DNA of 64,000 bases from Candidatus Woesearchaeota archaeon (GCA_964498295.1 CAZCGJ010000001.1:1669-65668); one strand, 5' to 3'; counted from the first letter of the stretch, positions 13,146 to 59,902 are shown. The notes: a model not told the origin generated them from the letters alone. Translations and numbers: made by a program.

Positions 13146-15080
13146 GTGACATCAATAGAGCATATAACAAGCAAAGTTTATAACTATGAAAAAAAGCCAA
13201 ATACCAAAAAGATGGAAAATATTTTCAGTTCAAAGGAAGACACTCATGTTTTTGATTATCTTAAAATTTTAAAATCCCTAAATGAAATCCCGTTTCCAAT
13301 AGGAAAAACAACTTTAATAGACTTTTTAACCGGCGACTCAACAAACGCTTCAGTTTCAAAAAACAAACTAACAAGAAAAATAAATTTCAATAGTCTCAAA
13401 TTAACTAAAGACCAAACGAGAGAAATGATCGACGACATGATAAAACAAAGATTCGTTGAAGTCACAGGCACTCTTTCAAACCCATTTATTAAACTTTTAA
13501 GCTTAACATCAAAAGGACAAGCAGAACTTATTGCCCCTAAATATTATTTAAAGAAAACAGAAAAGCCAACCCTGGAGAAATTTGACATTAGCACAGAAGA
13601 AATATACGAATTTCAAGAGTTTGATAAATTCCTAGAAAACTTCAACGAAAATCAAAAGAAAGCAATAATCTCAAAAAATGAGAAAATAATGTGTATTGCT
13701 GGAGCAGGTTCTGGAAAAACAGCAGTCCTCACAAAAAGAATAGAATTCTTAATAAAACATAGGGGAGTAAATCCTTCAAAAATCCTAGCCATAACATTCA
13801 CAAGAAAAGCAAGACAAGAGATGAGAAATAGACTTCAAGAATTCGGAATCTCGACAAACGTTGAAACATTCAACTCATTAGGAGAACATATCCTCAACAA
13901 ATATGAAAATGAAATATATGGCAGGCCAATAAGATTAATTAGTACGGCAGATAAAATAACAATGATAAAAGAAGCCCTAGAAAGCCAAGGGAAAACACTT
14001 TTACAGGCTGTAGAGGAATACTTCACCCCTCAACAAAAAGCAAACAAAACTCCTGAAAGATTAATGTGGACTTTCATAAATGATTGTTTTACAATAATAG
14101 ATTACTTCAAATCGAAGAACACTCCAATCCCTGATTTCTCCAAAGATGCAGACACAAAACACTACTTGATTGCTTTAATGGTCCTAAGAACCTGTAACTA
14201 CGTTAAAACATATATGGAAACAGAGGGACTGAGAGATTTTTCAGACCAAGTTATTGACTCATTAAATTTCCTCAAAAAAAACCAAGACAGAGTCCCTAGA
14301 TTCGAACACATTCTTGTAGATGAATATCAAGACTTGAATTCTATGCAAGTAGATTTCATAAAACTACTAAACGCACCAAATATATTTGGAGTCGGAGATC
14401 CGAGGCAATCTATTTTTGGCTGGAGAGGCTCTGAAATAACACATATTACAAACTTCTCAAAAGAATATCCTGAATGCGAAGTCGTTCCTTTAGTTATGAA
14501 CTATAGAAGCACAAAAAGAATTGTAGAACTCATGAACTCTTCAATTAAACATCTTAAATTTCCAGATCTAGTTGCAAACAAAGAAAGTAAATCCCATGAA
14601 ATAGAAATAGAAAAATTTGAAACAGAAATGGACGAAATTCTTTCAGTACTTCAGAAAGTTCTAGAATCAAAATCTGAGAGACATGAGATATTTATTCTTG
14701 CAAGAACAAATAGGCAACTAGTAGAAATTTCAAAAATAATGAGAAATATGCAAATTCCTCACATTCTAAAAACAGAAGATGAAAATACACAGATAACTGC
14801 GAAAGAAGGAGAAGTAACTTTGGCAACAATCCACTCAATCAAAGGATTACAAGCAAAAGAAACTTTTGTAATTGGCTGCAACGTTCAAAACTTCCCTTGC
14901 AAGGCCTCAGATCACCCAATAATAGAAATGATCAAAATGGAAAACTACGACAAAGACGAAGAAGAAAAAAGATTATTCTACGTAGCAATTTCAAGAGCAA
15001 AAGAAAAATTATACCTTAGTTACTCCGGAACAAAAACAGACTATATAACTGACGAAATGGTTAAGATAATTAATGATTAA
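13146..15080 (+). CDS. UvrD/Rep/PcrA-family superfamily-1 DNA helicase with an N-terminal extension of about 150 aa
   Basis: Walker A CIAGAGSGKTAVL, motif Ia ILAITFTRKA, DEYQD (motif II), C-terminal helicase motifs (ATIHSIKGLQ, LFYVAISRAK). Confidence 0.75.
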   Translation: MTSIEHITSKVYNYEKKPNTKKMENIFSSKEDTHVFDYLKILKSLNEIPFPIGKTTLIDFLTGDSTNASVSKNKLTRKINFNSLKLTKDQTREMIDDMIKQRFVEVTGTLSNPFIKLLSLTSKGQAELIAPKYYLKKTEKPTLEKFDISTEEIYEFQEFDKFLENFNENQKKAIISKNEKIMCIAGAGSGKTAVLTKRIEFLIKHRGVNPSKILAITFTRKARQEMRNRLQEFGISTNVETFNSLGEHILNKYENEIYGRPIRLISTADKITMIKEALESQGKTLLQAVEEYFTPQQKANKTPERLMWTFINDCFTIIDYFKSKNTPIPDFSKDADTKHYLIALMVLRTCNYVKTYMETEGLRDFSDQVIDSLNFLKKNQDRVPRFEHILVDEYQDLNSMQVDFIKLLNAPNIFGVGDPRQSIFGWRGSEITHITNFSKEYPECEVVPLVMNYRSTKRIVELMNSSIKHLKFPDLVANKESKSHEIEIEKFETEMDEILSVLQKVLESKSERHEIFILARTNRQLVEISKIMRNMQIPHILKTEDENTQITAKEGEVTLATIHSIKGLQAKETFVIGCNVQNFPCKASDHPIIEMIKMENYDKDEEEKRLFYVAISRAKEKLYLSYSGTKTDYITDEMVKIIND

Positions 15081-15994
15081 GAAAAAGCAGTCAAAGGCTC
15101 TATACAACCAGTAGGCGGAATAAATACTGACTCGTCTATATTCTCAACAGAAATATTAAAAAAAGAAGTCTTAAAACTATCCCCTTCTATAAAGGTCTCC
15201 ATTTGTAAAGGCACACAAAATTTAGTACTAAAGTAATCCAAACTTATCTCAGCATCTCCACCCAAGCCAATTTTAGCTTTATCCATATAAGATAAATGAC
15301 TAGCAGTCATCTTCAAAGCTTCCTGACCTTTAAAAACAACTTTTTCATCACGAACATAATTCTTTATATAAAAAGCATAATCAAGTAAATACACGCTCTC
15401 CAAAGGATTATGCCCATAAATATTTTCAGAATCATCTACCATCTCATCTTCTTTTTTCACAAGTACACAAACGTCGCCATTAGAAGTATAGCTTGCAGTC
15501 TCCCTATTTTCAGAGATAGTCCAATACCTAGCACTCACTCCGCCTAACATAGATTCAGAATATACAATTCTTTTAACCTTGTTTTCCAAAATCCAATACT
15601 TAGAGATGCCACTACCTCCAGTACCAGAACCTTCAACTTCATAAGAATACTTTTCAAAATCAATTACTCTCAAACACCCGCAAGAACCATTAGTAGTATT
15701 AAACCCTATAGCAAGATTGCTCCCATTGCATAAAGAATTATTTCCAATTTTATTAGAAGAAATATTAGACAAGTTATTGCTATCAGAGAAACCAGTCTCA
15801 TTTTTTAAAGAAGGATTATTCGAAAAAGCTATTTTACTCTCTTCTAAAGAACTGTTTGAGGTAGCTGCAAGCATATTCTCTCCAGTATCTTGATTTAAAT
15901 TATCAGAAAATAAGAAAACCCAAGAAGCTCCTGCAATCAGAACTAAAGCTAGAATAATACCTGAAATAACTAAAATACTTCCCTTTTTGTACAT
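15077..15994 (-). CDS. Hypothetical secreted or membrane-anchored protein (N-terminal TM/signal anchor)
   Basis: Hydrophobic N-terminus ILVISGIILALVLIAGASWVFLF; Asn/Ser-rich ectodomain. Confidence 0.45.
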   Translation of the reverse strand: MYKKGSILVISGIILALVLIAGASWVFLFSDNLNQDTGENMLAATSNSSLEESKIAFSNNPSLKNETGFSDSNNLSNISSNKIGNNSLCNGSNLAIGFNTTNGSCGCLRVIDFEKYSYEVEGSGTGGSGISKYWILENKVKRIVYSESMLGGVSARYWTISENRETASYTSNGDVCVLVKKEDEMVDDSENIYGHNPLESVYLLDYAFYIKNYVRDEKVVFKGQEALKMTASHLSYMDKAKIGLGGDAEISLDYFSTKFCVPLQMETFIEGDSFKTSFFNISVENIDESVFIPPTGCIEPLTAFS

Positions 15995-16463: not shown

Positions 16464-18386
16464 TTAATTAGTTCTTCTTATAATTAAAACAATAAGTAAT
16501 AATAGTACAATTATTGCAATAAGTAAAATCATATTAAATATCAATTGATTTGTTTTACCGGAGATATAACTATCCATATTAAATCCTTCATTTACAGAAC
16601 CATTTTGGTAATTAAGAGCAATAACAAAATCATCATCCATTGAAACAGAATCTGCAGTTTCATTATAATCAAAGTCATTCACAGGTGCACGAGTATGACT
16701 TCTACAGGCATCGCAATCTGGATCCTTATCGCAATCAACTCCTTGAGAAACATTTACTATAAAAGAAACACTGTCCACGCCAATATTACTAGAACTATCG
16801 TTTGCATAAGCAATAAGAGTATAATTTCCATTTGATAAATTCATAAGATAGCTATAATTATAATTATAACGAACACCATTTAGACTATACCAAACATCAT
16901 CTACAACAACATCATCAACTGCAAGAATAGTTAGTCTAACTAAATTAGAAGTATAAATTTGATTTACCGGGGAAATTATTGTGACATTAGGTCCAAGATT
17001 ATCTGAAGTATTATTAGTACCATTTGAAGAAGTATTTATAATAAAATGAGTATGCACAGAACTTAAACTTCCACAACTATCATTTGCATAAGCAACAAGA
17101 GTATAGTTTCCATTTGATAAATTTGCAATTGTAGATCCAGAATAACTAAAGTTAACTCCATTAAGAGTATACCAAACATGAGAAAGATTTGAATCTAAAG
17201 CAGAAATACTAACAGTTACCAAAGTGTTATTATATATTCTAGAGACTGGAGAAACTATTGTCAAAACAGGAGCAGTATTTCCAATACAAGAATTATTTGT
17301 AGTATTTGTGTTATTGCAATTAGTACAAATAGTAGAATTTGTTAAAACAGTCACATTTGGATTGTTTAATATAAAACTAGCATTATTACCTAAATAAGTT
17401 GTGTAATTTACATAAGCAATTTCATTCAAATGAGCAAGACTAGAATTGTAAACAATAACATTAAAGCTAAATGACTTCGACTCATTAATTTTTAATAATC
17501 CAGCATTGCAAGTCATCTTTCTTGTGTTTAGAGTATAATTACATCCAAAAGGAAGAGAAATAGGCACAACACCTAATGCCAAAAAATCTGTAATAATGAT
17601 ATTTTCTCCAGCAATAACCGTTATTTCCTTACTCCTAACATCATCTACAATCCAATGAGCAATATCATTCATCGTATGAGGATCGCTATCAGTAGGGTAA
17701 TGCCAGTAAATACCATTGCTAATATTAGAGATATTCTTAAGCAAATTAAATCCAGGAGTATTAAATTCTTCTCCAATACCAATTGTATAAATAGAAATAT
17801 TTTTTGCAGCAGCGAGATTTGCTTGTTGAAGAGCATAGGCTTTTGCATCGGCAGGAAGATTTGCCTTTCCATCAGAAATTAAAACAATAACTTTTGAATT
17901 CATAGTATTATTAAATTGTTCAGAAGCTTTCTTTATTGCTTCTCCAATATTAGTATTGCCTGAAGCAGAAATTGTATCGATATTGTTCTTTACAGAAACA
18001 TAATCTTTAGTTAAATTGTTTTTCACGAAAGGATTAGTATTGAAATAAACAAGACCCACCCTATCGTAAAGAGAGTCTAAAATGTTAACTATGGCCTTTC
18101 CAGCTAATTTTGCCTGAGAAATTTTATTCCCACACATGCTACATGAATTATCAATAACTAAAATAATATCCATAGGAACTCTAACATTGTTCATATTTCC
18201 GGCCCCATTAACAGTCAAAGTAATAGTTGCATTATCTCCAACATATAAAATATTAGGTGAAACAGACTTATTGCCTTCCAAATAAGGAACTGCAGAAATA
18301 GAGCTTAAAGAAATAATAATCGCTGCTACAAGCACTAGCAATCCTGCCAAAAGCTTCCATTGAATTTTGTGTGACTTTCTCTTCAT
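16464..18386 (-). CDS. Surface protein with a von Willebrand factor A (MIDAS) domain, tandem Ig-like domains and a C-terminal TM anchor; last gene of the pilin-like cluster
   Basis: Signal peptide; vWA motifs DIILVIDNSCSM (DxSxS), VIVLISDG, IYTIGIGE; duplicated NLSNGNYTL(V/I)AYANDS Ig-like modules; C-terminal hydrophobic stretch plus RRTN. Confidence 0.75.
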   Translation of the reverse strand: MKRKSHKIQWKLLAGLLVLVAAIIISLSSISAVPYLEGNKSVSPNILYVGDNATITLTVNGAGNMNNVRVPMDIILVIDNSCSMCGNKISQAKLAGKAIVNILDSLYDRVGLVYFNTNPFVKNNLTKDYVSVKNNIDTISASGNTNIGEAIKKASEQFNNTMNSKVIVLISDGKANLPADAKAYALQQANLAAAKNISIYTIGIGEEFNTPGFNLLKNISNISNGIYWHYPTDSDPHTMNDIAHWIVDDVRSKEITVIAGENIIITDFLALGVVPISLPFGCNYTLNTRKMTCNAGLLKINESKSFSFNVIVYNSSLAHLNEIAYVNYTTYLGNNASFILNNPNVTVLTNSTICTNCNNTNTTNNSCIGNTAPVLTIVSPVSRIYNNTLVTVSISALDSNLSHVWYTLNGVNFSYSGSTIANLSNGNYTLVAYANDSCGSLSSVHTHFIINTSSNGTNNTSDNLGPNVTIISPVNQIYTSNLVRLTILAVDDVVVDDVWYSLNGVRYNYNYSYLMNLSNGNYTLIAYANDSSSNIGVDSVSFIVNVSQGVDCDKDPDCDACRSHTRAPVNDFDYNETADSVSMDDDFVIALNYQNGSVNEGFNMDSYISGKTNQLIFNMILLIAIIVLLLLIVLIIRRTN

Positions 18387-18565
18387 GGTATTCTATCACA
18401 CACTCTCTTCACTCGGGTTAAACTAAATAATAGTTATTATTCAGTAACAACAACCCTATTTAAATCTTTTGATTTTAGAACTACTATCAAGTTACATAAA
18501 AAATAAAAAATAAACACAACCAACTAGAGACAAAAAATTAAGAAATAAAAACCTTCGAAAAATTC

Positions 18566-19117
18566 TTAAGCCTTAAGAGCTAAAGAATAAATATTTCCCT
18601 GCTCTACTGTAGGTAAAGTAGCAATATCTAAACCGAACTTAGTTACATTAATTGACTTATCACATTTCATACCGTTAATATATTCTGTCCAACTAGTACT
18701 ATCTCCAGAATGAGATCTATTGAACTCAAAACATTTATTATAAGCCATTTGATTTTGAACCGTAAGGTTACAAGACTCCAATACCTTCTGAGGAACTTCT
18801 TCAGTTGTAAAAGAAGCTAAATTATTTTGCTTTAAGAAAGCACAATTAGCATAACTCTTTTTACCGCCGACAATTAAAGGATATTTAAAATTACCACAAT
18901 ATGCAGCAAGCTTTGCTTCATCAGTAGAAGCCAACTTCAAATCCTTTTGACAAGATAAAATCATATTTGTAGTCTCAATAGCTTGAGCATCGATAGTAGT
19001 ATTTATTTTAAAGAAAAATGCATATGTGGCATAAGCAATAACAGCTGCAACAATAAGCACAAGAACAAAAACAACTATTGCTCCGCCAGATTCCTCAGCT
19101 CCTTTTTTATTAATCAT
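18566..19117 (-). CDS. Archaeal type IV pilin-like protein (class III signal peptide)
   Basis: Start moved to the internal Met giving MINKKGAEESGG followed by a 20-aa hydrophobic helix; Cys-containing ectodomain. Confidence 0.6.
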   Translation of the reverse strand: MINKKGAEESGGAIVVFVLVLIVAAVIAYATYAFFFKINTTIDAQAIETTNMILSCQKDLKLASTDEAKLAAYCGNFKYPLIVGGKKSYANCAFLKQNNLASFTTEEVPQKVLESCNLTVQNQMAYNKCFEFNRSHSGDSTSWTEYINGMKCDKSINVTKFGLDIATLPTVEQGNIYSLALKA

Positions 19118-19151
19118 CTTTTTCTTAGAACAAACCCATTTATAAATCTTT

Positions 19152-19859
19152 TTATGAACTTCCAGATTCAGTATAGTCAAAAGATAATAAGAATTCAATC
19201 TTTTTCATTTCTTTGTCAATATAATACTCATCGCCACTAACTAACTTTAGCTGTTTCTCCTTAATCACACTTATGACAAAGTTAGGAAGTTCCTGCTCGA
19301 GACAAACCTTGACTTCACTATCTTTAACAGAACCTTCATTACATACAGTACGAATAAGCATAATTTTATCTAAGCTTGGCAAACCGAAATTATCAAACCC
19401 TACAGAAACATTTAATTCAGAAGAATAAGTAATATTCAAATTAGGATAAACTCTTTTAGCACCCCAAGGAGAAAGACTTGTATAAACTTTTTTACCATCA
19501 AAATAAAATAAAGTCACACCTGAAAACAATTTTTTTAAATCTTCTGGTACAGAGCTCTCAGTCTGCTTAAAACGAACCTTTAAATCTTCTTCAAAAACCT
19601 TGTTTAAATCTGCAGAAGAACTAATCTTTTCAGAATTTTCAGATAAAATTTTTTGATAACTACTTAAGAAATCCTCGGTTAATTTAATATAAAGAGTATT
19701 TTCATATCCTTGTTTTTCAGAGTAGATATTACTCACTGCATTAAAATTCTCTGAAACTTTTGAAGACTGATTAGATATTGCAAATATGATATAGATAAAC
19801 AACAAAAGAGTCATGATCACCATAACACCCACTTCGATAGATGCCTTCTTATTTATCAT
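19152..19859 (-). CDS. Archaeal type IV pilin-like protein (class III signal peptide)
   Basis: N-terminus MINKKA|SIEVGVMVIMTLLLFIYIIFAI. Confidence 0.6.
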   Translation of the reverse strand: MINKKASIEVGVMVIMTLLLFIYIIFAISNQSSKVSENFNAVSNIYSEKQGYENTLYIKLTEDFLSSYQKILSENSEKISSSADLNKVFEEDLKVRFKQTESSVPEDLKKLFSGVTLFYFDGKKVYTSLSPWGAKRVYPNLNITYSSELNVSVGFDNFGLPSLDKIMLIRTVCNEGSVKDSEVKVCLEQELPNFVISVIKEKQLKLVSGDEYYIDKEMKKIEFLLSFDYTESGSS

Positions 19860-20283
19860 AATTGCTCCTCCTTATTACTGTAATAGAAAGATATCCTTTT
19901 TCACAATGACTGCACGGAAAATAAGTTTTATCTGCAAAAAAAGGAACAGAACCTAAAGGATAAAGGTTAAAGGTATAGTTATTAGGAATAGATAATTTTG
20001 GAAGATTAACCATAAACCCTCCAGTAACAGTATTTGTATACTTATAAGCATCATATAGCACTTTTCCTTTACTACTACTATTGAAATCGCTAATAACTGC
20101 ATAAGCTGCAACTCTTTGAGATTCGGAAGAATAAACATTAGAGTCATAATTAATAACAACGGACTTCTGACTAAATTTTCCAGCAATTGAAAAGAACACT
20201 GCAAAGATAACTATTAGCGCAATAGCAATAAGTCCTGCTGCCCAAGACAATCCTTCTCCTGCTGCACGTTTATTTATAATCAC
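19849..20283 (-). CDS. Archaeal type IV pilin-like protein
   Basis: N-terminus MIINKRAAGEG|LSWAAGLIAIALIVIFAVFF; overlaps the neighbouring genes by a few nt (operon). Confidence 0.55.
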   Translation of the reverse strand: MIINKRAAGEGLSWAAGLIAIALIVIFAVFFSIAGKFSQKSVVINYDSNVYSSESQRVAAYAVISDFNSSSKGKVLYDAYKYTNTVTGGFMVNLPKLSIPNNYTFNLYPLGSVPFFADKTYFPCSHCEKGYLSITVIRRSNYDK

Positions 20284-20783
20284 TTTCTCACCCCGTTATT
20301 ATCAGATGAAACCCACCCGACAATTTTAACATTAATAATAGAAGATCCATTGAAATAAAGATAAGTTTCATTTCTAAAAAGACACGAAATTACATTTTCA
20401 GTTTCAGTAGGATAAATAACTGCACAAGTTTGTTTCTTCTCAACTCTTTCAAGAACATCCCCTCCAACAAATGATTTAATTTCAACACCGGATTCATTTC
20501 TAAAACTAAAATCAAAATAGAGATGATAATTATCAATAATTGTTTTATTTAAATCACATTCAGAATACAAATCAAATTTAGAGTAAAAAGTATCATTATT
20601 AATAAACCCGTTCGAAACAAAACAATTCATTAAACGATCATACAGAACTTGAGTTTCATAACCTCGAATATCTACAGGAGTATTGACATATGAAGAAAGT
20701 ACAACCGTTGCCCCTCCAGCAATCAAAACCAAATAAAGTAAAAACATACCTGCATTTATTTTTTCACTAGCTTTTTTATCCAT
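20280..20783 (-). CDS. Membrane-anchored extracellular protein, possibly pilin-like
   Basis: N-terminus MDKKASEKINAG followed by a hydrophobic helix; less canonical cleavage motif. Confidence 0.4.
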   Translation of the reverse strand: MDKKASEKINAGMFLLYLVLIAGGATVVLSSYVNTPVDIRGYETQVLYDRLMNCFVSNGFINNDTFYSKFDLYSECDLNKTIIDNYHLYFDFSFRNESGVEIKSFVGGDVLERVEKKQTCAVIYPTETENVISCLFRNETYLYFNGSSIINVKIVGWVSSDNNGVRK

Positions 20784-20897
20784 TTTACAAAACTCTCCTA
20801 AGATTTATTTTATCAATTGAGAGTTTGTAAGGTAAAAATTTCATAGATTTACCACTAACATTCTTGACTGCTGCGACATAAGGGAGCATTATGCAAG

Positions 20898-21332
20898 TCA
20901 TTTTTTCACCTCAATAGAATAAAGAACTTTTTTATCAGTTGAAATTGCACTAGTAGTTACTAAATAATCACTGAAATAATTTTGAACATATCCGGCTGTA
21001 GCTCCCAAACGCAGTGAAACCATAACGCTGTGATTTAAAGGATCAATTTTAATTAAGTCCCCATAAGAACTTTCCTTCTCACCAGACCTAATAGCTATTT
21101 TATTAAGCTCAGTCACATCCAACACAAAAGTAGTATTTGGTTGAGCGCCATCAATAAGCAATGCAATTTTTTTTGCATAGATTTCTTCTTGAATCAAAGC
21201 CCCGCTCAAAGTATTTCTTGCAAATAAAAAGAAAACAACCATAAAAGCCAAAAGTAAAACGACAGAAATAATTGTAGGCCATGCAATTTCCTCACTATCT
21301 CCTTTTTTTCCAAGATTAAAATTAAACCTCAT
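20898..21332 (-). CDS. Archaeal type IV pilin-like protein
   Basis: N-terminal basic segment ...LGKKG|DSEEIAWPTIISVVLLLAFMVVFFLFA. Confidence 0.5.
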   Translation of the reverse strand: MRFNFNLGKKGDSEEIAWPTIISVVLLLAFMVVFFLFARNTLSGALIQEEIYAKKIALLIDGAQPNTTFVLDVTELNKIAIRSGEKESSYGDLIKIDPLNHSVMVSLRLGATAGYVQNYFSDYLVTTSAISTDKKVLYSIEVKK

Positions 21333-21370
21333 AAGAAAACAAACGAAGAGAGAATTATAAACTTAACGAC

Positions 21371-22387
21371 TTAAAGATTCTCAAAAGAATCTATGTTCCA
21401 TTGTGAAAAACCTTCTAAACTATAATTAGTTAACATTAATCCCCCAACATGATTACTACAAGGATCCGTATTTTTAGGATCATTACAAAAAGAACTATCT
21501 ACGAACCATTTCTTGAAAATAGAATCGCCAGCATTTGAACCGAGAACAAATCCTCCTCCAATAAGAATTCTGGCGCCCAATCCTTTTGTAAAATAAGCAC
21601 CAACAGCACCAGCACTCGCACCCGCAACCCCTCCAATTCTTTGAGCAAAACTAGTAAGAGTAGATTCAATATAAACAATAGACTTAACACCCTCTAAAGA
21701 AGTATTATCATTTAAAGTTGCACTCTTGACGTCTGAAACGACTAATGAGCCGAACAACTCCTGAGCGCTCTGACCCTCATAAGTCCCCCTTAAATAATCC
21801 ATATAACTATAATTATTATTAGGGACTTTATGGCTAACCATATAAAACATTAAGCCAGTAATATTCCTAATATCATCTTCATTTCCAGAGACACCATCTT
21901 TCCCATCTAAAACACTGTTATCGAACTCAATCTTATCACAAATAATTCCTTTAGAAGTAAAAGTCTTTGAATCAAACTCTCTAGAAAATATTTGTAATTT
22001 GCCCTCTCCGAACATTCCCCAGCAATCGGCCATTTCCCTAGATAAGAACATTTTTATTTGATCTTTCCTAGCTTCAACAGTTGTACCCGTCAATTTCATC
22101 GTATTGAATTCTTTTCCTAACTGAGTACAGTTTCCACGGCCAGACTTAGCAGTAACACAAATTTTAGTAGTTTTACATCTAATACTAATAGCATCTTTTG
22201 CGTTTACGCTAACACCTCCGACCTCACTAGGAACCGTAGCTCTCAAAATAATAGAAGCCTGACAAGCAGATCGATCAATAGTATCGCTAGTTGGAAAAAA
22301 GATTGCAATAACCACAAACACAACTAAAGTCATAACAGCAATAATAATACTTACAACAAACCAATTTATATCTCCTCGTTTATTCAT
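21371..22387 (-). CDS. Archaeal type IV pilin-like protein with a Cys-rich ectodomain
   Basis: N-terminus MNKRG|DINWFVVSIIIAVMTLVVFVVIAIFF. Confidence 0.55.
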   Translation of the reverse strand: MNKRGDINWFVVSIIIAVMTLVVFVVIAIFFPTSDTIDRSACQASIILRATVPSEVGGVSVNAKDAISIRCKTTKICVTAKSGRGNCTQLGKEFNTMKLTGTTVEARKDQIKMFLSREMADCWGMFGEGKLQIFSREFDSKTFTSKGIICDKIEFDNSVLDGKDGVSGNEDDIRNITGLMFYMVSHKVPNNNYSYMDYLRGTYEGQSAQELFGSLVVSDVKSATLNDNTSLEGVKSIVYIESTLTSFAQRIGGVAGASAGAVGAYFTKGLGARILIGGGFVLGSNAGDSIFKKWFVDSSFCNDPKNTDPCSNHVGGLMLTNYSLEGFSQWNIDSFENL

Positions 22388-22560
22388 AAAAAAAAGAGCA
22401 TATATCTCTTTTTATATTTATCCTAGCTTAGTAAAATAAGTGGCAATATAATAAACACCATAAGCCAATAACGCCAAAAGTAAAATTAAACCAATCTTCA
22501 CAACTAAGCTTTCTCCAAGATTATCTGCCATCTAAAACATGAGCAAAAAGAGTTAATAAA

Positions 22561-23904
22561 TTATTCCATACTTCTAAGAGAAACAGTATTTTGACCATTA
22601 GGATAACTAAAAACAAAATAGTCCCCGGTAATAGGATAAGAACCATCTAATATAAAAGAAACATTATACAAATAAACCAAGGAACTGGGATTAAAATTTT
22701 CAATCTCGGGCTCACCAAACAATAAATAAGAGTAAGACTCTAAAGGATTGCCTTCATGATAAAAAGTAATATTATACTTATTTACCTGGTTTTTTAAATT
22801 AGACAAATACTCCTTAAATGAATCCTTCGCACAATTTGTTTCAAATATAAAATAAAATTGATCATATCCTAACTTATTACTATAACTCTCATAACCTATG
22901 TTTTTTATACTACACGAAACATCAGTTTTATCTAACTTAAAAGAAAGACCTTTCCATTTTTGAATAGGGCACCTACTTCCACCACCCTCTAAATATGTCT
23001 TTGAGCAATCCACAGTATCCCACTCAACACTAATCTCTAAATCACATTTTGTAGAGTCCTTACCTGCTAAAACGTCTTCATTCAAAAAACAAGAAAAGTT
23101 TGCACTAGTATCTTGTATTGATAAAATATTACATTCAGGAACAGAATCATGAGGGACATACTTAACATTCTGTAAAAAAGAATCATCACAGACAAAATCA
23201 AAACGAATAACAGAATCTCTAAGTAATTCTAATTTACAATCTTTGAAGCTAGGATTGATATTTCTAACTAAAAATCTTCCATCAGATTTTATAAGTGTTT
23301 GATCATAGTATATAGAATCTGTAGAAAAAGAACAACCAGGATTTTGGGAACCATAAATAGTCCTAATAGCACCACCAAGACTACTTGGATAAAGTTTTAC
23401 CACACTAGATCCTTTATCTACTTGCAACCCGTATGGGACTTGAGTAATTTGCAAGCAATTAGCAATAGAACCCCAACTATTTACACAGCTAGTAGAAATA
23501 CTTGCATCTAAATTAATAGACTTACAAATATTTTGTGCTTTACAAATACCAAAAACTTTATTTTGTAAAACAGGATCAACAATAACACTCGAAGAGTATA
23601 GCTTACTTATTGGAGAACAAAAACAAACCTCTGTATTATTTGCCATAATAACCCATCCTTTAGGACTTTCAATAAAAACCTCCTTTGTTTGACCATCCGT
23701 CATTTTTCCAATCTCATAAACAATAGTATCAAGAGTATTTCTTGCCTGCTCCTCTTTCAAATTACTAGCAACAATCTTCCCCAATGCAAATAAAATAAAT
23801 AAAATAAAAATAAAAACGCCAATTCCAATTACTAATTTTACTATTTCTTCAACAGCTAAAGTTCCGCCCCTCTTTGACCTCATAAAAATAAGAAAAGAAC
23901 ACAA
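22561..23904 (-). CDS. Large (447 aa) pilin-like protein with a Cys-rich ectodomain; first gene of the co-directional cluster
   Basis: N-terminus ...MRSKRG|GTLAVEEIVKLVIGIGVFIFILFILFAL; the true start may be the Met at 23883. Confidence 0.55.
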   Translation of the reverse strand: MCSFLIFMRSKRGGTLAVEEIVKLVIGIGVFIFILFILFALGKIVASNLKEEQARNTLDTIVYEIGKMTDGQTKEVFIESPKGWVIMANNTEVCFCSPISKLYSSSVIVDPVLQNKVFGICKAQNICKSINLDASISTSCVNSWGSIANCLQITQVPYGLQVDKGSSVVKLYPSSLGGAIRTIYGSQNPGCSFSTDSIYYDQTLIKSDGRFLVRNINPSFKDCKLELLRDSVIRFDFVCDDSFLQNVKYVPHDSVPECNILSIQDTSANFSCFLNEDVLAGKDSTKCDLEISVEWDTVDCSKTYLEGGGSRCPIQKWKGLSFKLDKTDVSCSIKNIGYESYSNKLGYDQFYFIFETNCAKDSFKEYLSNLKNQVNKYNITFYHEGNPLESYSYLLFGEPEIENFNPSSLVYLYNVSFILDGSYPITGDYFVFSYPNGQNTVSLRSME

Positions 23905-23955: not shown

Positions 23956-25287
23956 ATGAAAGGATTAGAAAACCTACTCAAACGAACAGGAAGATATCTC
24001 GCGTCTACAATTTCTGCAATAGCCCTTTATTCTTCCGCTCAAGAACCTGCTAAAATAGAAGTAGCAAAAGATGGAAGTTGGAAAAAAACCTCGGACATAA
24101 CTCTTTATTTTCAAAGTACTACCGGTTCGCAAGGAAGAGATCCTTCAAAAAACCCATATAACCAATCTAAAGCAATGGCGTGTTTTGTAGGAAGAAATAA
24201 TCCGGATGGAAGCCTGACAATAACTTATTTAACAACTGATCCTGAAAACCCTTCAAAAGATGCAGCATATGCCTCGTTTAATTCATCATATGTATCTTTT
24301 CTTTCCAGCCAAAATTTGGAAGCAAGAGTTTCACAGAGAACAATTCTTATGGATGCTGGAGGAAATATCTCTTTCGAAAAAGCACAGCTTAAAGAGGAAG
24401 TAACAAACCCTCTGATCTGGGTCGGTCAAAAAATATATGAAAAAGCAGATGAATATGACCCTGTAAAAAAAATAGGAGACGAAAGCGGATTTTTTAGCGG
24501 AGGCACATTAGATATAATCAGAAACTATGCCGATTCATTTGAAAAAACCTCTAATGAAGGTTTAGAAAAAGTAAAGGGAAAAGAAATAAGCATAAACCAA
24601 ATACCTAAGAGATCTAGAACTTCTTGGATAACTACGACAAAAAAAGAAATAGGTACAGAAACTACGCTTGTATTCTTAGGAGATAAAGAAGGAAAAACAA
24701 AAATTAGTGTTTATTATGACATCGGTCTAATGAAAGGAAGAGATACGGGAAGAACAAAAGCCTATACAGGTTTAATAGAAGTAAAAACATCGGCAAAAGA
24801 ACAAACACAAACTTGTTTAGAAAAAGGAACAGGTACAAGCAATCCCTTAGAGGGGTTTTGGAGAGAAAAAGAAAATAAGAACAGTCTAGTATATATCACT
24901 CCAAAAGGAATTTTTATTTCTCTTCCAGAAATGCTATTTGAAAATAAATATACTTTAATGGCAATAGCTAATAATTCTAAAAAAGAAAAAGAGATATATG
25001 TATCTAGAATAAAAGATAGCAAGTTCAATATTGATATTAGAGAAACTGGAAAAGTAGAACAGATAAGCAACCAACAAATAAAAGCAGCCTGTATAATTGC
25101 AAACGCACCAGATATGGAAATAACCTTAGAAAGAGCTCCGGAATTAAACAGAGGACTAGAAGAAATCACTCAATCAGAAACACAATCTGGAAATGATCAG
25201 GCAAAACCAATAGAAAAGCCAAAATCTACACCGCCAAAACAAACAACAGGCCCTTCCTATGATATTAGAAATTGGATGAAGAAATAA
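23956..25287 (+). CDS. Hypothetical secreted protein (443 aa) inserted between two pilin-like transcription units
   Basis: Signal-peptide-like N-terminus; no recognisable domains. Confidence 0.45.
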   Translation: MKGLENLLKRTGRYLASTISAIALYSSAQEPAKIEVAKDGSWKKTSDITLYFQSTTGSQGRDPSKNPYNQSKAMACFVGRNNPDGSLTITYLTTDPENPSKDAAYASFNSSYVSFLSSQNLEARVSQRTILMDAGGNISFEKAQLKEEVTNPLIWVGQKIYEKADEYDPVKKIGDESGFFSGGTLDIIRNYADSFEKTSNEGLEKVKGKEISINQIPKRSRTSWITTTKKEIGTETTLVFLGDKEGKTKISVYYDIGLMKGRDTGRTKAYTGLIEVKTSAKEQTQTCLEKGTGTSNPLEGFWREKENKNSLVYITPKGIFISLPEMLFENKYTLMAIANNSKKEKEIYVSRIKDSKFNIDIRETGKVEQISNQQIKAACIIANAPDMEITLERAPELNRGLEEITQSETQSGNDQAKPIEKPKSTPPKQTTGPSYDIRNWMKK

Positions 25288-25324: not shown

Positions 25325-25924
25325 TTATTTTTTAGAAACAACTTTTTGATAAAAATGAAATTGCCCATTTGAATCTAAGATAAAGGTATTCACTTCGGTA
25401 GGAAGTTTAAACACATTAGAGCAAGAACTAGGCAAAGTATGTTGACCCACAATAATATCACAAATAAAAGTATCGCCTATCCCTTCTGTACTAAAAAGAG
25501 AAACCTTTGCACGAGGAAAAAAAGAATATTTCTTAAAATAATACTCTTGCATTTCAGGTCCGGCAGGCCAATTTGCTAAAATACAATAAGAAGTACCTAG
25601 AGACCACCAACAATCTTTATTAGAAACATTGTAAGAAACCTGCCATCCAGAAACTTCAACTAAACTTTCATCATTTTGGATGACAATAGCTCCATTCTGT
25701 TCAATAACACCAGGAACAAGCTCATCAGTGCCGTTAATTTCATTGTATTTTTCTCCCTGACTAGTATTCATGCTAGGGAGCCATCCTTTGATTATATCTC
25801 CCCAACTTGCTTTCATAAAAATAGGAGTAAGAATCAAAACAATTAGCAATAGTCCTAGAAACAAATACATCATTTCAGTCCAACCCATTTCAAAACCTTT
25901 TTTGTTTTTTATAATAGACCTCAT
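25325..25924 (-). CDS. Archaeal type IV pilin-like protein
   Basis: N-terminus MRSIIKNKKG|FEMGWTEMMYLFLGLLLIVLIL; its ATG overlaps the stop of the upstream small pilin ORF (ATGA). Confidence 0.6.
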   Translation of the reverse strand: MRSIIKNKKGFEMGWTEMMYLFLGLLLIVLILTPIFMKASWGDIIKGWLPSMNTSQGEKYNEINGTDELVPGVIEQNGAIVIQNDESLVEVSGWQVSYNVSNKDCWWSLGTSYCILANWPAGPEMQEYYFKKYSFFPRAKVSLFSTEGIGDTFICDIIVGQHTLPSSCSNVFKLPTEVNTFILDSNGQFHFYQKVVSKK

Positions 25925-26088
25925 TTAAAACAACCCCCGAAACGCATACAATCATAAAACTTAGATAAGTAATTAGAAATAGTATCCCTAGCAAAAAACA
26001 AAATAAGCGCTGCAACAACCAAACCAATTATTGCAAGTATCATCCAAATACCTTGTAAAGTTATTTGACCTTTTTTTATCAACCTCAT
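25921..26088 (-). CDS. Small (55 aa) archaeal pilin-like protein, absent from the ORF track; candidate major pilin
   Basis: Hand translation gives MRLIKKG|QITLQGIWMILAIIGLVVAALILFFARDTISNYLSKFYDCMRFGGCFK: a class-III signal motif with Gln at +1, one long hydrophobic helix and a short tail. Confidence 0.6.
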   Translation of the reverse strand: MRLIKKGQITLQGIWMILAIIGLVVAALILFFARDTISNYLSKFYDCMRFGGCFK

Positions 26089-26198
26089 AGAAACATAACA
26101 GCTAAGAGATTAATAAATCTTTATGTGCCTGAAATGCCGTATTTTAAATACAAAGAATTCATTACAATACCCTTACAAGTAACCTTTATATAATCCAA

Positions 26199-26735
26199 AT
26201 GACTTTAACAAGTATGGAAAAAATAAAGGCAACATTTATGTCTGAAAAAGTATTCTCCAACACAAAAGAAGCATTTGAGTTATTTGAATCACAGAGATTT
26301 GGAGAAAAAACCGGAGAAAAAGTCTATTATATTTTACAAGAAGCCTTGCTCCTAGTTGAAACTAAAAAAATGGAAATTTTTGACTCAAAGGACAAAAAAA
26401 TTCCAGAAAAAGATTTGCTTAAAAAATTTGAAAAAATAGACAAGAAATTCAAAACAAAATATTTTGTTTTTAGAGACATGAGACAAAAAGGATTTATTGT
26501 TAAAACAGCACTAAAATTCGGAGCAGAATATAGAGTTTATGAAAAAGGAAAATCAATTAGCGAAGAACACTCAAAATGGTTATTATTCCCTGTATCCGCT
26601 ACTCAAAATATGACCTGGCAGGACTTTTCAGCAAAAAATAGAATAGCACACTCGACTAACAAAAAGCTTTTAATTGCAGTAGTTGATGAAGAGAATGCAG
26701 TCTCATATTATGAGGTAAACTGGTTGAAAATATAA
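26199..26735 (+). CDS. endA: tRNA-splicing endonuclease (EndA) catalytic subunit
   Basis: C-terminal catalytic domain with YFVFRDMRQKGFIVK...AEYRVYEKG...HSKWLL (Tyr/His/Lys triad context). Confidence 0.7.
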   Translation: MTLTSMEKIKATFMSEKVFSNTKEAFELFESQRFGEKTGEKVYYILQEALLLVETKKMEIFDSKDKKIPEKDLLKKFEKIDKKFKTKYFVFRDMRQKGFIVKTALKFGAEYRVYEKGKSISEEHSKWLLFPVSATQNMTWQDFSAKNRIAHSTNKKLLIAVVDEENAVSYYEVNWLKI

Positions 26736-29278: not shown

Positions 29279-30088
29279 TTATATTAATTGAGGTTCATAA
29301 AATTTCTGTCGATACATTTCCCTATTAACTTTCTCTGGTTTAAAATGCCTCTTGAAAATTTTAGAAAATAAGGTCTCTTTTTCTTTCTCACCTGCAATTG
29401 CAGAAGCCAATTTTTTAATTTCCCTTGAAACCTCATTCACACCATCATATACCGTTAGAGGAACTCTAAAATGCCCTGCCTCGAGTATTTTCTTGTGATC
29501 TTTAACTCTAGCCAAAACAGGAAGCTCAATTAGCTCTTGTATTTCAGATAAGTCTAGCTCATACTTTGAATCTTTAATTCTATTAATTATAACCCCGACA
29601 ACATTAGTCTTATTGTGTCTAGCCATCTGTGCAGCTTTAATAGAAGTATGTAAAGTAACTCTATCAGGTGTTGTAACAATAAAAATTTTATCAGCAGCAG
29701 CAATAGCGGGCAACATCTCAGAATGGTGAGGGGAAGAATCTATAACAATAAAATCGTATCTGTCCCTATACTTCTCAAGAACTTTTTTTAATTTTAAAGG
29801 ATCTATTTTATCATTAAAATGCATAGAAGCAGGAACAACATCCATACCATAAGATTCGTATATTGCTGCATGTAAACCTTCGTTATCGCTCAAAACGTCA
29901 TGTATTGTTAAATCATCTTTCAAATCAAGATACAGCCCGATATTGGGAGCAGAAAAATTTGCATCAACTAATAAAACTTTTTTTCCAAAATCATTTGCTA
30001 AAGCAGAAGCTGTCTCCATAGCAATAGTTGTTTTACCAACACCTCCTTTTATAGACACAAAACTAATTATTATCCCCATATTCACCAC
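29279..30088 (-). CDS. MinD/ParA-family P-loop ATPase
   Basis: Deviant Walker A KGGVGKTT, followed by LLVDANFSAPN and Walker B DFIVIDSSP. Confidence 0.75.
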   Translation of the reverse strand: MVNMGIIISFVSIKGGVGKTTIAMETASALANDFGKKVLLVDANFSAPNIGLYLDLKDDLTIHDVLSDNEGLHAAIYESYGMDVVPASMHFNDKIDPLKLKKVLEKYRDRYDFIVIDSSPHHSEMLPAIAAADKIFIVTTPDRVTLHTSIKAAQMARHNKTNVVGVIINRIKDSKYELDLSEIQELIELPVLARVKDHKKILEAGHFRVPLTVYDGVNEVSREIKKLASAIAGEKEKETLFSKIFKRHFKPEKVNREMYRQKFYEPQLI

Positions 30089-30170: not shown

Positions 30171-30998
30171 CTAAAATGATTGAGCAACAGATAAATGAGA
30201 TCTTATCTTTGCATAAATTAGAAGAACTAAAAAGATAAAGGCATTAATTAACACAATAGTACCAGAAACTGCAAAATCAAAATAATATGCAATTACAATC
30301 CCAAAAATTACTGAAGAAACAGAAATTAGCAAGGAACAGCCAAGTGTTTTCTTAAAGCTAGTTTTAATTTGTAAAGCAGATGCAGACGGTAAAATAATTA
30401 AAGCAGATGCTAGCATTAAACCAACTATATTCATTGAACAAACAATTGTAATTGAAGTTAGAACAATAAGCATAGAATTCAAGAACTCTACTTTTATTCC
30501 AGAAACTCTTGCAGATTCTTCATCAAAAGATATGTAAAATAAATCTTTATAATAAACAAGTATAAAAATAATGACAATTAAAGCCAAAAAAATAGACAAA
30601 TATAGTTCTGTATTTTTTATTGCGAGAATACTCCCAAATAAATAGCTCAAAATATCAACATTGAATCCTCTTGCAATACTAGCAATAAAAATGCCCAAAC
30701 CCAAACTAGCATGGCTTATTACACCTATAGCGGTATCTCCGTGGATATCTGCCTTTTCCTTAAGTTTAAGTATCCCAAAAGAACCTATCAGTCCAAATAG
30801 AAGAGCACCGAAAAAAGGAGTAACATTAAACAATAAGCCGGTAGCGACACCTCCAAAAGAAATGTGCGCAATCCCGTCCCCAATTAATGAAAATTTTCTT
30901 AAAACCAAAAATAACCCCAAAAGAGAGCAAGCAATAGCAATTACGATTCCAGAAATAAAAGCTTTTTGCATAAAGGTATATGTCAATATCTCAATCAT
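30171..30998 (-). CDS. znuB: Metal (Zn/Mn) ABC transporter permease, ZnuB/ABC-3 family
   Basis: 8-TM permease with MIEILTYTFMQKAF...GDGIAHISFGG signature; start moved to the internal Met. Confidence 0.75.
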   Translation of the reverse strand: MIEILTYTFMQKAFISGIVIAIACSLLGLFLVLRKFSLIGDGIAHISFGGVATGLLFNVTPFFGALLFGLIGSFGILKLKEKADIHGDTAIGVISHASLGLGIFIASIARGFNVDILSYLFGSILAIKNTELYLSIFLALIVIIFILVYYKDLFYISFDEESARVSGIKVEFLNSMLIVLTSITIVCSMNIVGLMLASALIILPSASALQIKTSFKKTLGCSLLISVSSVIFGIVIAYYFDFAVSGTIVLINAFIFLVLLIYAKIRSHLSVAQSF

Positions 30999-31752
30999 TA
31001 TTATCCTCATCCAAACACAGTTTATGTTCATGTTTATGTGCTGGATCATTCATACAGAAATCCTTATGACTCCCATAGAAATGAAGTGTTTGATTTATAC
31101 TTGCTATCTTGGTTACATATTTTGTTATCCTACTAATATCATGACTTACTAAAAGAAGGGTTATTCCCTTTTTATTTAACCTACCGAGTAATTCATAAAA
31201 ATATTTTTGATTTTCTTGATCTACTCCTGTAGTAGGTTCATCCAATATCAATATTTCCGGATTAGCAACTAGTGCTTTTGCAATCAAAACTCTTTGCTGT
31301 TGACCCCCAGACAGTTCAGTTATTCTTCTTTGCCCAAAGTCTTGCATTTTTACAGTAGAAAGAGAATTTTTTATCTGAATATTATTTTTTTGTGTTATAA
31401 TCTTTGGGAATTTTTTAATAGAAAGTAGTCCCATTGAAACGACTTCGTTTACAGTTGCTGGAAAGTTTTTTTCGATATTAGTTGCCTTTTGGGGAACATA
31501 CCCTATCTTATGCCATTCTTTAAAGTTTACTAAATTTTTTCCTAAAATACTGACTCTTCCCTTTTGAGGAACAAGTATGCCTAGAATTATTTTAAGAAGC
31601 GTTGTTTTTCCAGACCCATTTGGACCTATCAACCCGACAAAATCACCTTTTTTAACAGTAAAAGAAACATCTCTAACAACAATAGCATTCCCATATGAGA
31701 ATGAAATGTTATCTAATTCAAGTAATTTATCCATAAAATTAACTACATTCAA
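30991..31752 (-). CDS. znuC: Metal ABC transporter ATP-binding protein (ZnuC-like)
   Basis: Walker A GPNGSGKTT, ABC signature LSGGQQQR, Walker B ILILDEPT. Confidence 0.85.
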   Translation of the reverse strand: MNVVNFMDKLLELDNISFSYGNAIVVRDVSFTVKKGDFVGLIGPNGSGKTTLLKIILGILVPQKGRVSILGKNLVNFKEWHKIGYVPQKATNIEKNFPATVNEVVSMGLLSIKKFPKIITQKNNIQIKNSLSTVKMQDFGQRRITELSGGQQQRVLIAKALVANPEILILDEPTTGVDQENQKYFYELLGRLNKKGITLLLVSHDISRITKYVTKIASINQTLHFYGSHKDFCMNDPAHKHEHKLCLDEDNND

Positions 31753-41029: not shown

Positions 41030-41961
41030 TTTAGGTACCCACTAATAAATAGTAACTTAGGTACCGAAAGATATATAAAGAATAGGTACCTAATTATATT
41101 ATGAAAGAAATAATTTGTCCGCATTGCAAAGAAAAAGAGATTAAGAAAGATGGAGTAAGAACAACAGAAAAAAGAGGGAAAATTCAAAGATACAAATGTA
41201 ACCTTTGCAATTATCGATTTGTCGTCGATGATGGCTTTTACAGAATGAGAAATAATGAAAGTATTATCACAATGTCAATCGACATGTATATTTCTAATTT
41301 GTCAAGTAGAAAAATGAGAAATCAATTAAGCAGACATTTAAACACAAAAATAAGTCATATGAGTATTCTTGATTGGGTAAGAAAATATACTTTAAAAGTT
41401 AGTAAATTTGTTGATAAATTAGGTTACAACATGGGAAATAGTTTCTATGCTGATGAAACCTTAATTGATTGTGGGGGAAGAGATGATAGATTTTGGTGTT
41501 GCATTGATTGGGATACTCGATTAATTACTGGAGTTCATTATAGTTTATCTGGTAATCCAATAGAAGCACAAAAATTCTTATTTAAGTCAATTCAAAAGGG
41601 AAAACCTAAATTCATCCAGACAGATGGTGGAGTTTTCTATCCTAAAGCATTTAGAAAACTCTTCTACTCTAATAAGATTGGTGGTTTAACAGTCGAGCAT
41701 AAGATACAAAATGCAAGTGTTACTAAAATACATAATTATAGAATAGAAACTGTTTTTATGAAGATTAAAGACAGAGTAGACGACTTTAGAGGATTGAAAG
41801 CATTATGGTCTGCCCCAATACTTATGAATGCTTTAATAATTCAACATAATTTCATAGAAGCTCATACAACCTTAGATGAAGTTCCATGCAATAGAGCAGG
41901 ACAAGAGTTAAACTTGGGAGAAAATAGATGGCTAGGATTAATTCATTTATCCAGTAGGTAA
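41030..41961 (+). mobile_element. IS-like element: DDE transposase gene preceded by three TAGGTACC direct repeats; clear terminal inverted repeats not found
   Basis: Single transposase ORF; motif TAGGTACC repeated at about 41030, 41059 and 41085, all within 70 nt upstream of the ATG. Confidence 0.4.
41101..41961 (+). CDS. DDE transposase with an N-terminal zinc ribbon (IS6- or IS1595-like)
   Basis: CPHC...CNLC zinc ribbon; DDE-type motifs ADETLIDC, CIDWDTRLITG, FIQTDGGVFY, NYRIETVFMKIKDR. Confidence 0.6.
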   Translation: MKEIICPHCKEKEIKKDGVRTTEKRGKIQRYKCNLCNYRFVVDDGFYRMRNNESIITMSIDMYISNLSSRKMRNQLSRHLNTKISHMSILDWVRKYTLKVSKFVDKLGYNMGNSFYADETLIDCGGRDDRFWCCIDWDTRLITGVHYSLSGNPIEAQKFLFKSIQKGKPKFIQTDGGVFYPKAFRKLFYSNKIGGLTVEHKIQNASVTKIHNYRIETVFMKIKDRVDDFRGLKALWSAPILMNALIIQHNFIEAHTTLDEVPCNRAGQELNLGENRWLGLIHLSSR

Positions 41962-42108
41962 TGCTGGAGGTTGAGGTATAGAACTTCCACCATTAGTAAT
42001 AGGAGAAGAATCTCCTGTTAACCAAAAGTAAACTCCGACTCCAACAGCTAAAAGGATTAAAATTATTACAATCCAAATCCATGCTGAGCCTCTTTTATTG
42101 TTTATCAT
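41947..42108 (-). CDS. Small (53 aa) pilin-like ORF not in the ORF track; overlaps the transposase 3' end by about 15 nt
   Basis: Hand translation MINNKRG|SAWIWIVIILILLAVGVGVYFWLTGDSSPITNGGSSIPQPPALPTG; 1-nt gap after the upstream secreted-protein gene. Confidence 0.5.
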   Translation of the reverse strand: MINNKRGSAWIWIVIILILLAVGVGVYFWLTGDSSPITNGGSSIPQPPALPTG

Positions 42109-42109
42109 T

Positions 42110-42727
42110 TTAATAAGGGATATTTGGAGGAGCTACGTTATTCCCACCATTTACTTTAAGATTACAATTACTTGAAACTTTAACAATCATCCCTCTACCC
42201 AAATCTTGTTCTTGATCTGCGAGGGTTCTCTCATCAACATCTGTATCGACTACTCCCCACCCTCTCTGATAACCTGCAATTTTTTCAACATTACAATTTC
42301 CCTTCCAATCTTTAACTTTTAATCTGAAAATATCTGAAGTAATTCCAACAAAATTCCAACCTGTAACCATCTTTCGATTATTAGCATAAGCCCATTCTTC
42401 TTCAACATTATATTCAATCCAACCACTTTTCTTTAGATAAACCCAAAAGGCACTATTTAATAGCTCTTCATCATCAACTTTTACTTCAGGATTGGGATAA
42501 ATTCTAGCATATTTATTTTCATTAGGCAAATATGCATAAACTGCAACAACGTCTTGGTTTGTAATTTCTCCACCAGTAATTAAGTCAGGAGTTACAAATC
42601 CTTGTAATAAATTCCAACCTTCATCAACGGAAACTTTATATTTTATATTAAAGTTGTCAGCTAATACAAATACTGCACCTGCTAAAATTATTACAAATGC
42701 AATTGGTAAAATGAATTTCTTATTCAT
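42110..42727 (-). CDS. Secreted hypothetical protein (205 aa)
   Basis: Signal-peptide-like MNKKFILPIAFVIILAGAVFVLA. Confidence 0.45.
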   Translation of the reverse strand: MNKKFILPIAFVIILAGAVFVLADNFNIKYKVSVDEGWNLLQGFVTPDLITGGEITNQDVVAVYAYLPNENKYARIYPNPEVKVDDEELLNSAFWVYLKKSGWIEYNVEEEWAYANNRKMVTGWNFVGITSDIFRLKVKDWKGNCNVEKIAGYQRGWGVVDTDVDERTLADQEQDLGRGMIVKVSSNCNLKVNGGNNVAPPNIPY

Positions 42728-58638: not shown

Positions 58639-58804
58639 ATTAAATAAACCTCCTTTCACATCTTTACAAAACCTATTCGATTTCATTAATTAATATAGCC
58701 CTCATGCCTTTATAAAATTTGTTGTTTTGAATTTTTATATCAACGATAACTCAAAATCACAAGATATTTAAATAAAACATTCTGATTAATAAAAAGGTGA
58801 TAAG

Positions 58805-59868: not shown

Positions 59869-59902
59869 ATTAATTAAGAGAGTATGAGATTTATAAACAT
59901 TA

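Follow-up and report, generated by a model that had tools for sequence, protein, structure and literature searches.

The question raised by this locus is whether a reading frame of 55 codons, lying ahead of a run of genes for proteins with pilin-like N-termini, is a gene at all and, if so, whether its product is a subunit of a type IV filament and which part it would play there. The window, by which we mean the whole 64-kb stretch of DNA analysed, has a GC content of 32 % and encodes the archaeal proteins TFIIB, family-B DNA polymerase (PolB), Gins51, Alba, S17e, S3Ae and tRNA-intron endonuclease. A first-pass annotation had proposed that the frame encodes an unannotated candidate major pilin, translationally coupled to the next gene, which encodes a pilin-like protein of 199 aa (the partner). 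The coordinates of the small frame, the 55-aa sequence and the overlap with the partner gene were all confirmed from the sequence (Table 1). The ORF runs from the ATG at 26088-26086 to the TGA at 25923-25921 and its product is MRLIKKGQITLQGIWMILAIIGLVVAALILFFARDTISNYLSKFYDCMRFGGCFK.

Table 1. Features of the small gene and its surroundings, with positions counted from the first nucleotide of the window.
Feature	Position	Strand	Character and evidence
Small gene	25921..26088	-	55 codons and TGA, encodes a prepilin-like protein; sequence, dN/dS, relatives, NCBI/JGI gene calls
Predicted leader MRLIKKG (codons 1-7)	26068..26088	-	cut predicted after Gly7
Predicted mature 48-aa protein	25924..26067	-	Q1-A26 uncharged, then tail RDTISNYLSKFYDCMRFGGCFK
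ATGA stop/start overlap of small gene and partner	25921..25924	-	sequence, kept in relatives
Partner gene, 199 aa	25325..25924	-	class III-like N-terminus, start MRSIIKNKKGFEMGW...
GGGGG, possible Shine-Dalgarno-like element for the partner	25934..25938	-	from Gly-Gly codons, 9 nt before the partner ATG
Archaeal promoter of the small gene	26110..26122	-	BRE-like AAAG, then TATA box TTTATTAA (26117-26110)
Rest of the cluster	16464..23904	-	seven proteins with [KR][GA] and a hydrophobic N-terminus, then a 640-aa VWA/Ig-domain surface protein

The small gene had already been called elsewhere. The identical 55-aa protein is a called gene in both NCBI and JGI, under the name "hypothetical protein", and was absent only from the six-frame track of the first-pass annotation. 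A first homology search missed the protein itself because it is misfiled in the 90 % cluster of a PhoH-like ATPase. That 90 %-identity cluster has an unrelated 602-aa representative of high GC, and the placement of the small protein in it was judged to be a database artefact and not the sign of a fusion. Three homologues at 71-90 % identity, all called genes on metagenome contigs, were recovered from 5.8 billion proteins. A profile search of 1.84 billion cluster representatives detected four further relatives, and one MAG and eight contigs came from scanning GTDB genomes and JGI metagenomes. In total, about 17 distinct relatives or versions with an intact small ORF were found. The frame was intact at every related locus found (L001-L012, L013, L014 and L017-L023); at L024 the ORF was cut by the contig end. 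Lack of conservation or a disrupted frame in relatives, which the first-pass annotation had named as evidence against its proposal, was thus not seen.

Codon-by-codon comparison of four lineages gave a pairwise dN/dS of 0.075-0.28 at a dS of 0.64-1.46, and the frame of the small gene was the only one open in all four. The small protein was also the most conserved in the pilin-like cluster, being 84 % (L001) and 69 % (L014) identical to the window copy, against 31-70 % for the other cluster proteins. The small ORF is a real gene under strong purifying selection. That it is instead a chance ORF in AT-rich intergenic DNA, or a regulatory upstream ORF with a functionless peptide, could be argued from its length of only 55 codons and its lack of a family match. 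This reading is nevertheless extremely improbable and is effectively refuted by the conservation data. The dN/dS remained at 0.08-0.28 despite the high dS, the distinct intact versions are numerous, amino-acid conservation exceeds that of every other protein in the cluster, and the invariant Arg and Gly of the protein are encoded by codons that differ between lineages. In addition, we estimate from base composition that 55 stop-free codons at 32 % GC would arise by chance with a probability of about 1 %.

Upstream of the small gene lies the sequence AAAGATTTATTAA, in which the end of the TATA box is exactly 21 nt from the ATG. The promoter motif, TAAA[CG]ATTTATTAA, was conserved across related loci, and the intervening 21 nt were variable in sequence. 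The length of this spacer was kept in five aligned lineages and in L014, L015, L017-L021 and L023. It was 22 nt in L022, and in L016 a distance of 21 nt from the TATA box led to an internal ATG. Among the window's genes, the distance between a TATA-like octamer and the start codon showed a sharp peak, with 9 genes at 21 nt and 4 at 22 nt. Archaeal TATA boxes are centred about 26 nt upstream of the transcription start. With the TATA box 21 nt before the ATG, the mRNA of the small gene is therefore most likely leaderless, as would be the case for the many genes of this genome that have the 21-nt spacing, and the ATG at 26088 is then the true start. Under the same rule the annotated starts move to MRMNKRG in L016 and to MDLVGVKKG in L022.

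A TATA box followed by 21-22 nt and an ATG thus offers a practical rule for recognising true leaderless starts in this genome, and it corrects several start codons in the window. By this rule, the gene at 26199-26735 starts at codon 6 (position 26214), that at 59089-59973 at codon 36 (position 59868) and that at 22561-23904 at codon 8 (MRSKRGG..., position 23883). For the gene at 18566-19198 the longest-ORF start is too long and the rule points to the ATG at 19117 (MINKKGAEES...). The promoter type of the small gene is shared with many genes in the window, including three others of the cluster that have promoters of their own with the same geometry (TATA box and 21 nt). The last pilin-like gene has an internal ATG, and 21 nt ahead of this ATG lies a near-identical promoter, AAAGATTTATAAA (19139-19151, minus strand). 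The product of that gene would then have a true length of 183 aa, and the gene is another candidate for a subunit with separate, strong expression.

Positions -2, -1 and +1 of the signal are important in archaeal class III signal peptides (PMC3387779). In the window copy, K6-G7 occupies -2/-1 and is followed by an uncharged hydrophobic stretch, as FlaFind-type class III criteria ask. We aligned 15 versions of the small protein. The leader starts with M-R-L-x-K, is 7, 19, 20 or 22 aa long and ends with [KR]-G, or with K-A in one member. Fourteen members have G at -1 and the remaining one has A; at -2 all carry K or R apart from two, in which K stands at -3. The Gln that the first-pass annotation had noted after the predicted cut (Q8 in the window) is invariant in all 15 close members and is followed by I/V/L and then S/T. 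The junction (a slash marks the predicted cut) is accordingly G/Q in 14 of the 15 members, and A/Q in the other, despite the variable leader. We infer from this sequence pattern that a prepilin peptidase cleaves after Gly7. In the two most distant syntenic orthologues, position +1 was Ala (L015) or Gly (L016), followed by charged (acidic) residues.

From Q8 to A33 the window copy has no charged residue, and a stretch of about 26 uncharged residues is present family-wide. The tail, RDTISNYLSKFYDCMRFGGCFK, contains two Cys and the conserved R-[FY]-G motif. Across the family it reads N-Y-L-[SA]-K-F-Y-D-C-x-R-[FY]-G-G-C, with the R and G invariant in 15 of 15 sequences. The AlphaFold2 model of the small protein is a single helix spanning residues 5-50, with a mean pLDDT of 71.

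We also compared this signal with others in the window. In a six-frame scan, [KR][GA] followed by a long uncharged run was found in 15 of 227 ORFs of at least 40 aa, and nine of these 15 are the consecutive genes of the cluster. A stricter cleavage-site hexamer rule, [KRDE][GA][ALIFQMVED][ILMVTAS]x3, which is said to go back to Szabo et al. in 2007, was applied to the same 227 ORFs. It was passed by two, the small ORF and a 616-aa ORF at 52073-53923. The small ORF, earlier described as the cleanest prepilin in the window, therefore has the best signal in the cluster and shares that rank in the window with the 616-aa ORF.

The product of this 616-aa ORF, on the minus strand, starts MIKRQKRG/QVTVFIIIGILVVAAIG; its class III-like signal is as clean as that of the small protein and likewise has Gln at +1. 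The end of its gene overlaps by 4 nt the start of the gene for a giant secreted protein of 1947 aa (46233-52076, minus strand). Neither protein matched Pfam; the pair may be a second pilin-like or adhesin unit. A 53-aa ORF at 41947-42108 (minus strand) encodes MINNKRG/SAWIWIVIILILLAVGVGVYFWL..., with a class III-like N-terminus and a Pro/Gly-rich tail, and starts 1 nt past the stop of the gene for a 205-aa secreted protein (42110-42727). Just beyond the VWA gene of the cluster, at 15077-15994 (minus strand), lies a gene with its own TATA and 21-nt promoter for a 305-aa protein, MYKKG/SILVISGIILALVLIAG, which is also class III-like.

The partner ATG is at 25924-25922, so that the four bases ATGA (25924-25921) are common to both genes. 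This overlap was found in eight distinct lineages (the window, L001, L007, L012, L013/L023, L014, L021 and the L017-L019 group) and in the distant orthologue L015. In L022 it takes the form TGATG. L016 was the sole lineage without a stop/start overlap, its genes being 1 nt apart. Since the stop of the small gene overlaps the start of the partner in all lineages but one, translation of the two is most likely coupled, as the first-pass annotation had proposed. At the position of GGGGG, the pattern GGnGG was kept in five aligned lineages (GGAGG in L013). It is a possible Shine-Dalgarno-like element, and the Gly-Gly that it encodes is also conserved as protein. No conserved RNA structure was found at the junction (consensus energy -0.15 kcal/mol, z-score 0.02) or over the ORF, and an Rfam search of junction and ORF gave no match. 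A scan for sigma-70 promoters and intrinsic terminators, of a type not applicable to archaea, detected no terminator between the two genes. A stop/start overlap with no intervening terminator suggests that the small protein is made in proportion to the partner, not in excess of it.

The partner protein begins KNKKG/FEMGW..., which leads into a hydrophobic helix; a region of some 75 aa is conserved, and the C-terminal domain is hypervariable. Its orthologues range from 199 to 432 aa and are only 39 % (L001) and 37 % (L014) identical to the window copy. Two database homologues of the 199-aa protein were found, too few for a model. BLASTP gave no alignment between the small protein and the partner, and their N-termini showed no similarity.

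The small gene is the first of nine genes for proteins with class III-like N-termini, to which the VWA protein gene is added. The seven further proteins have, as listed, 447, 338, 144, 167, 144, 235 and 210 aa, and the 640-aa VWA/Ig surface protein has a C-terminal anchor. The order of the locus is a divergent tRNA endonuclease gene, the small gene, the coupled partner, usually one gene on the opposite strand, and the remaining genes. This order was kept in L001, L013, L014, L015 and L016, and the synteny extends to relatives in which the 338-aa cluster protein is only 50 %, 41 % and 36 % identical. In the window, the opposite-strand gene (23956-25287, plus strand) encodes a 443-aa secreted protein with no Pfam match and stands between the pair of small gene and partner and the remaining cluster genes. 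A gene at the same position and in the same orientation was found in L008, L013, L014, L015 and L016, and was absent in L001.

Pfam and NCBIfam scans of all cluster proteins identified no pilin family. The 338-aa protein was modelled with AlphaFold2 from 28 sequences (pLDDT 66), and the model matched no PDB fold and no known pilin fold. The ground for a pilus reading of the cluster as a whole is therefore the N-terminal motifs and nothing further. Searches of the 64-kb window, of the 5 kb past one of its ends and, in L001 and L014-L016, of the DNA up to 10 kb from the cluster detected no secretion ATPase, TadC/ArlJ-like platform protein or A24 prepilin peptidase. The absence of this machinery from the stretches searched does not refute a pilin reading, because the pilin loci of M. 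maripaludis likewise lack it nearby.

About 3 kb from the small gene, at 29279-30088 (minus strand), lies a gene for a ParA/MinD-family ATPase, whose position was kept in L014, L015 and L016. FleN/MinD ATPases are found with some type IV pilus loci of archaea (PMC4858521). Since the whole region is syntenic, no link of this gene to a pilus can be claimed. The only mobile-element gene seen in the window was a DDE transposase of the IS240 family at 41101-41961 on the plus strand (PF13610, E 1.9e-11).

Comparison of the small protein with established pilin families gave a divided result. Eight members of the family gave no match to Pfam PF04021 (Class_IIIsignal/DUF361), PF04964 (Flp) or PF01917 at E up to 10, and an NCBIfam scan of the small protein gave none either. 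A profile search of PDB sequences returned only low-complexity hydrophobic matches, and Foldseek with the single-helix model found no match, as expected for one helix. The DUF361 motif is QXSXEXXXL, including a Glu at +5 (PMC2910488). The window copy reads QITLQGIWM instead (S to T, E to Q and L to M), and +5 is Q, H or T in the family. The Flp motif, Glu at +5 and Tyr at +6, was also absent, these positions being Q and G. The protein is short and has no globular C-terminal domain, which is a mark of Epd pilins: 48 residues would remain after cleavage and the model is a single helix. In M. maripaludis, EppA cuts Epd pilins at KG/Q[IVL] and needs Gln at +1 (PMC4371748). On paper, then, the small protein resembles Epd and Flp pilins, and it fails the HMM, +5 Glu and Flp-motif tests.

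Our preferred reading, to which we give a probability of roughly 0.55, is that the product of the small gene, in an uncultured archaeon with AT-rich DNA, is a type IV pilin-like protein that is very short and "headless". That the protein is a prepilin-like subunit of a type IV filament we regard as likely. The basic leader MRLIKKG would keep the N-terminus in the cytoplasm, and a prepilin (class III signal) peptidase would cut after Gly7. This would release a 48-residue protein consisting essentially of one long helix, with its first 26 residues hydrophobic and a short amphipathic tail that would place a small Cys-x5-Cys loop and the invariant R-[FY]-G motif on the outside. Extraction from the membrane would be the task of an assembly ATPase and a platform protein encoded elsewhere, and the protein would then pack by its helix into the core of a pilus-like fibre in the manner of Methanococcus Epd and bacterial Flp/Tad pilins. 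Surface or adhesive parts would come from the coupled partner, with its conserved N-terminal helix and exchangeable outer domain, and from the pilin-like and VWA proteins encoded downstream. The high conservation of the small protein is consistent with a subunit buried from end to end.

It is distinctly unlikely, in our judgement, that the small protein is no pilin at all. It would then be an uncleaved single-pass membrane protein (N-in, C-out) serving the surface proteins encoded nearby as an accessory, anchor or chaperone, and KKG would be a mere positive-inside signal ahead of a transmembrane helix. The lack of a pilin HMM or fold match agrees with this, as does the failure to find assembly machinery in the window or near the cluster. 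The most conserved positions in the 15 sequences are the C-terminal R-[FY]-G and not the cut site, L015 and L016 carry charged residues straight after the putative cut, and [KR][GA] with a hydrophobic stretch also occurs in probable non-pilins of the window (30171-31049, 57865-58686 and 59903-60937). Against this reading, the G/Q junction stays constant although the leader varies threefold in length. The junction matches exactly the experimentally defined EppA site KG/Q[IVL] (PMC4371748), nine consecutive genes encode the same kind of N-terminus, and proven Epd and Flp pilins are of the same size and likewise consist of a helix only (PMC3875500; AlphaFold2 model).

If the protein is a pilin, it could be the bulk subunit or a lesser component. 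By analogy with known pilins, it may be the major, most abundant subunit of the filament, although we put the chance of this somewhat below even. The first place in the cluster, the promoter of its own and the highest conservation are indirect hints of such a role. The first-pass annotation had reasoned from pilus layout, in which a short major subunit precedes larger minor ones. This argument is weak for archaea: in M. maripaludis, epdE is encoded away from the minor pilins (PMC3875500). Rather unlikely, on our estimate, is the opposing case of a minor or priming pilin, or an obligate 1:1 partner of the adjacent variable-headed protein. It has in its favour the stop/start overlap, which, kept except in L016 and with neither a terminator nor a conserved hairpin, is the usual arrangement for proportional synthesis. 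Overlapping genes can still yield unequal amounts of protein, and the major pseudopilin GspG precedes the minor pseudopilins within one operon. The small gene and partner also form a unit of their own, which the opposite-strand gene parts from the cluster in most relatives, and cluster genes for proteins of 144-183 aa with their own TATA and 21-nt promoters could supply the bulk subunit. Three of the four equally short pilin-like proteins of M. maripaludis are not major: these three have 67-76 aa, EpdD being an essential minor pilin and the other two dispensable (PMC3875500).

The partner keeps its N-terminal region of about 75 aa and swaps its C-terminal domain, as is seen in the lengths and identities of its orthologues, and this points in the same direction. 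Taken further, it would lead to a two-component pilin, with the small protein as a near-invariant, helix-only subunit of 48 residues that builds the fibre core and the coupled neighbour as a roughly 1:1 partner carrying an exchangeable outer domain. We hold this idea to be more doubtful still. The small protein is far more conserved than the partner, which is unusual for a tightly co-evolving pair, and the two have no N-terminal sequence similarity. Conservation, position in the cluster and precedent thus speak for a major role, whereas the tight coupling to a hypervariable partner and the small non-major pilins of M. maripaludis speak for a minor or 1:1 role.

Should the small protein be a pilin, the headless Flp/Epd-like class would gain members in a small clade of freshwater archaea that have not been cultured. 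Bacterial Tad pili are regarded as descendants of headless archaeal pilins. It would also follow that current pilin HMMs miss such subunits; pilus loci in genomes of this kind would seem to have no filament subunit, because the gene is missed by length cut-offs and family models alike. A true two-component pilin would be the shortest archaeal pilin described and an archaeal counterpart of Geobacter PilA-N/PilA-C, and it would let an archaeon that is uncultured and may depend on a host change its adhesive surface in a cassette-like way.

Both short pilins that have Q at +1 and pilin-like gene clusters are already well documented, and the locus can be set beside three known systems. The split pilin PilA-N/PilA-C of Geobacter was reportedly described by Gu et al. 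in Nature in 2021. Both there and here a gene for a short helix-only pilin is immediately followed by one for a would-be outer-domain protein, and tight co-expression hints at a heterodimeric unit. Unlike the Geobacter case, the partner here has a class III-like N-terminal helix of its own, and the heterodimer here is putative. Flp/Tad pilins (PF04964) are like the small protein in their mature size (about 45-60 residues), their near single-helix form and the place of their gene at the start of the locus, and some Flp pilins of Gram-positive bacteria likewise have Gln at +1 (PMC3875500). The small protein differs from them in lacking the Flp motif and a PF04964 match, in its archaeal host and leaderless promoter, and in having no Tad machinery nearby.

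The closest comparison is with the Epd pilins of Methanococcus. The Epd pilin (arCOG06620) resembles Tad pilins in having no globular domain, and the system to which it belongs, archaeal TFF system 1, is present in DPANN archaea (bioRxiv 10.64898/2026.04.22.720090). Differences from Epd are the lack of a PF04021 match and of a conserved N-glycosylation sequon, the Gln/His/Thr at +5 in place of the conserved Glu, and the C-terminal Cys-x5-Cys and R-F-G-G motif. The small gene moreover heads a pilin-like cluster and is coupled to the partner gene; epdE, by contrast, is a solitary gene at a distant locus. Larger pilin-like proteins accompany both. EpdE (MMP1685), the major pilin of Methanococcus maripaludis (PMC4371748, table 1), has 74 aa and 62 mature residues, and such a size together with Gln at +1 is typical of Flp pilins (PMC3875500). 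Both proteins are thus very short and headless, and the cut at KG/QI in EpdE is identical to the one predicted for the small protein, with the same Gln at +1.
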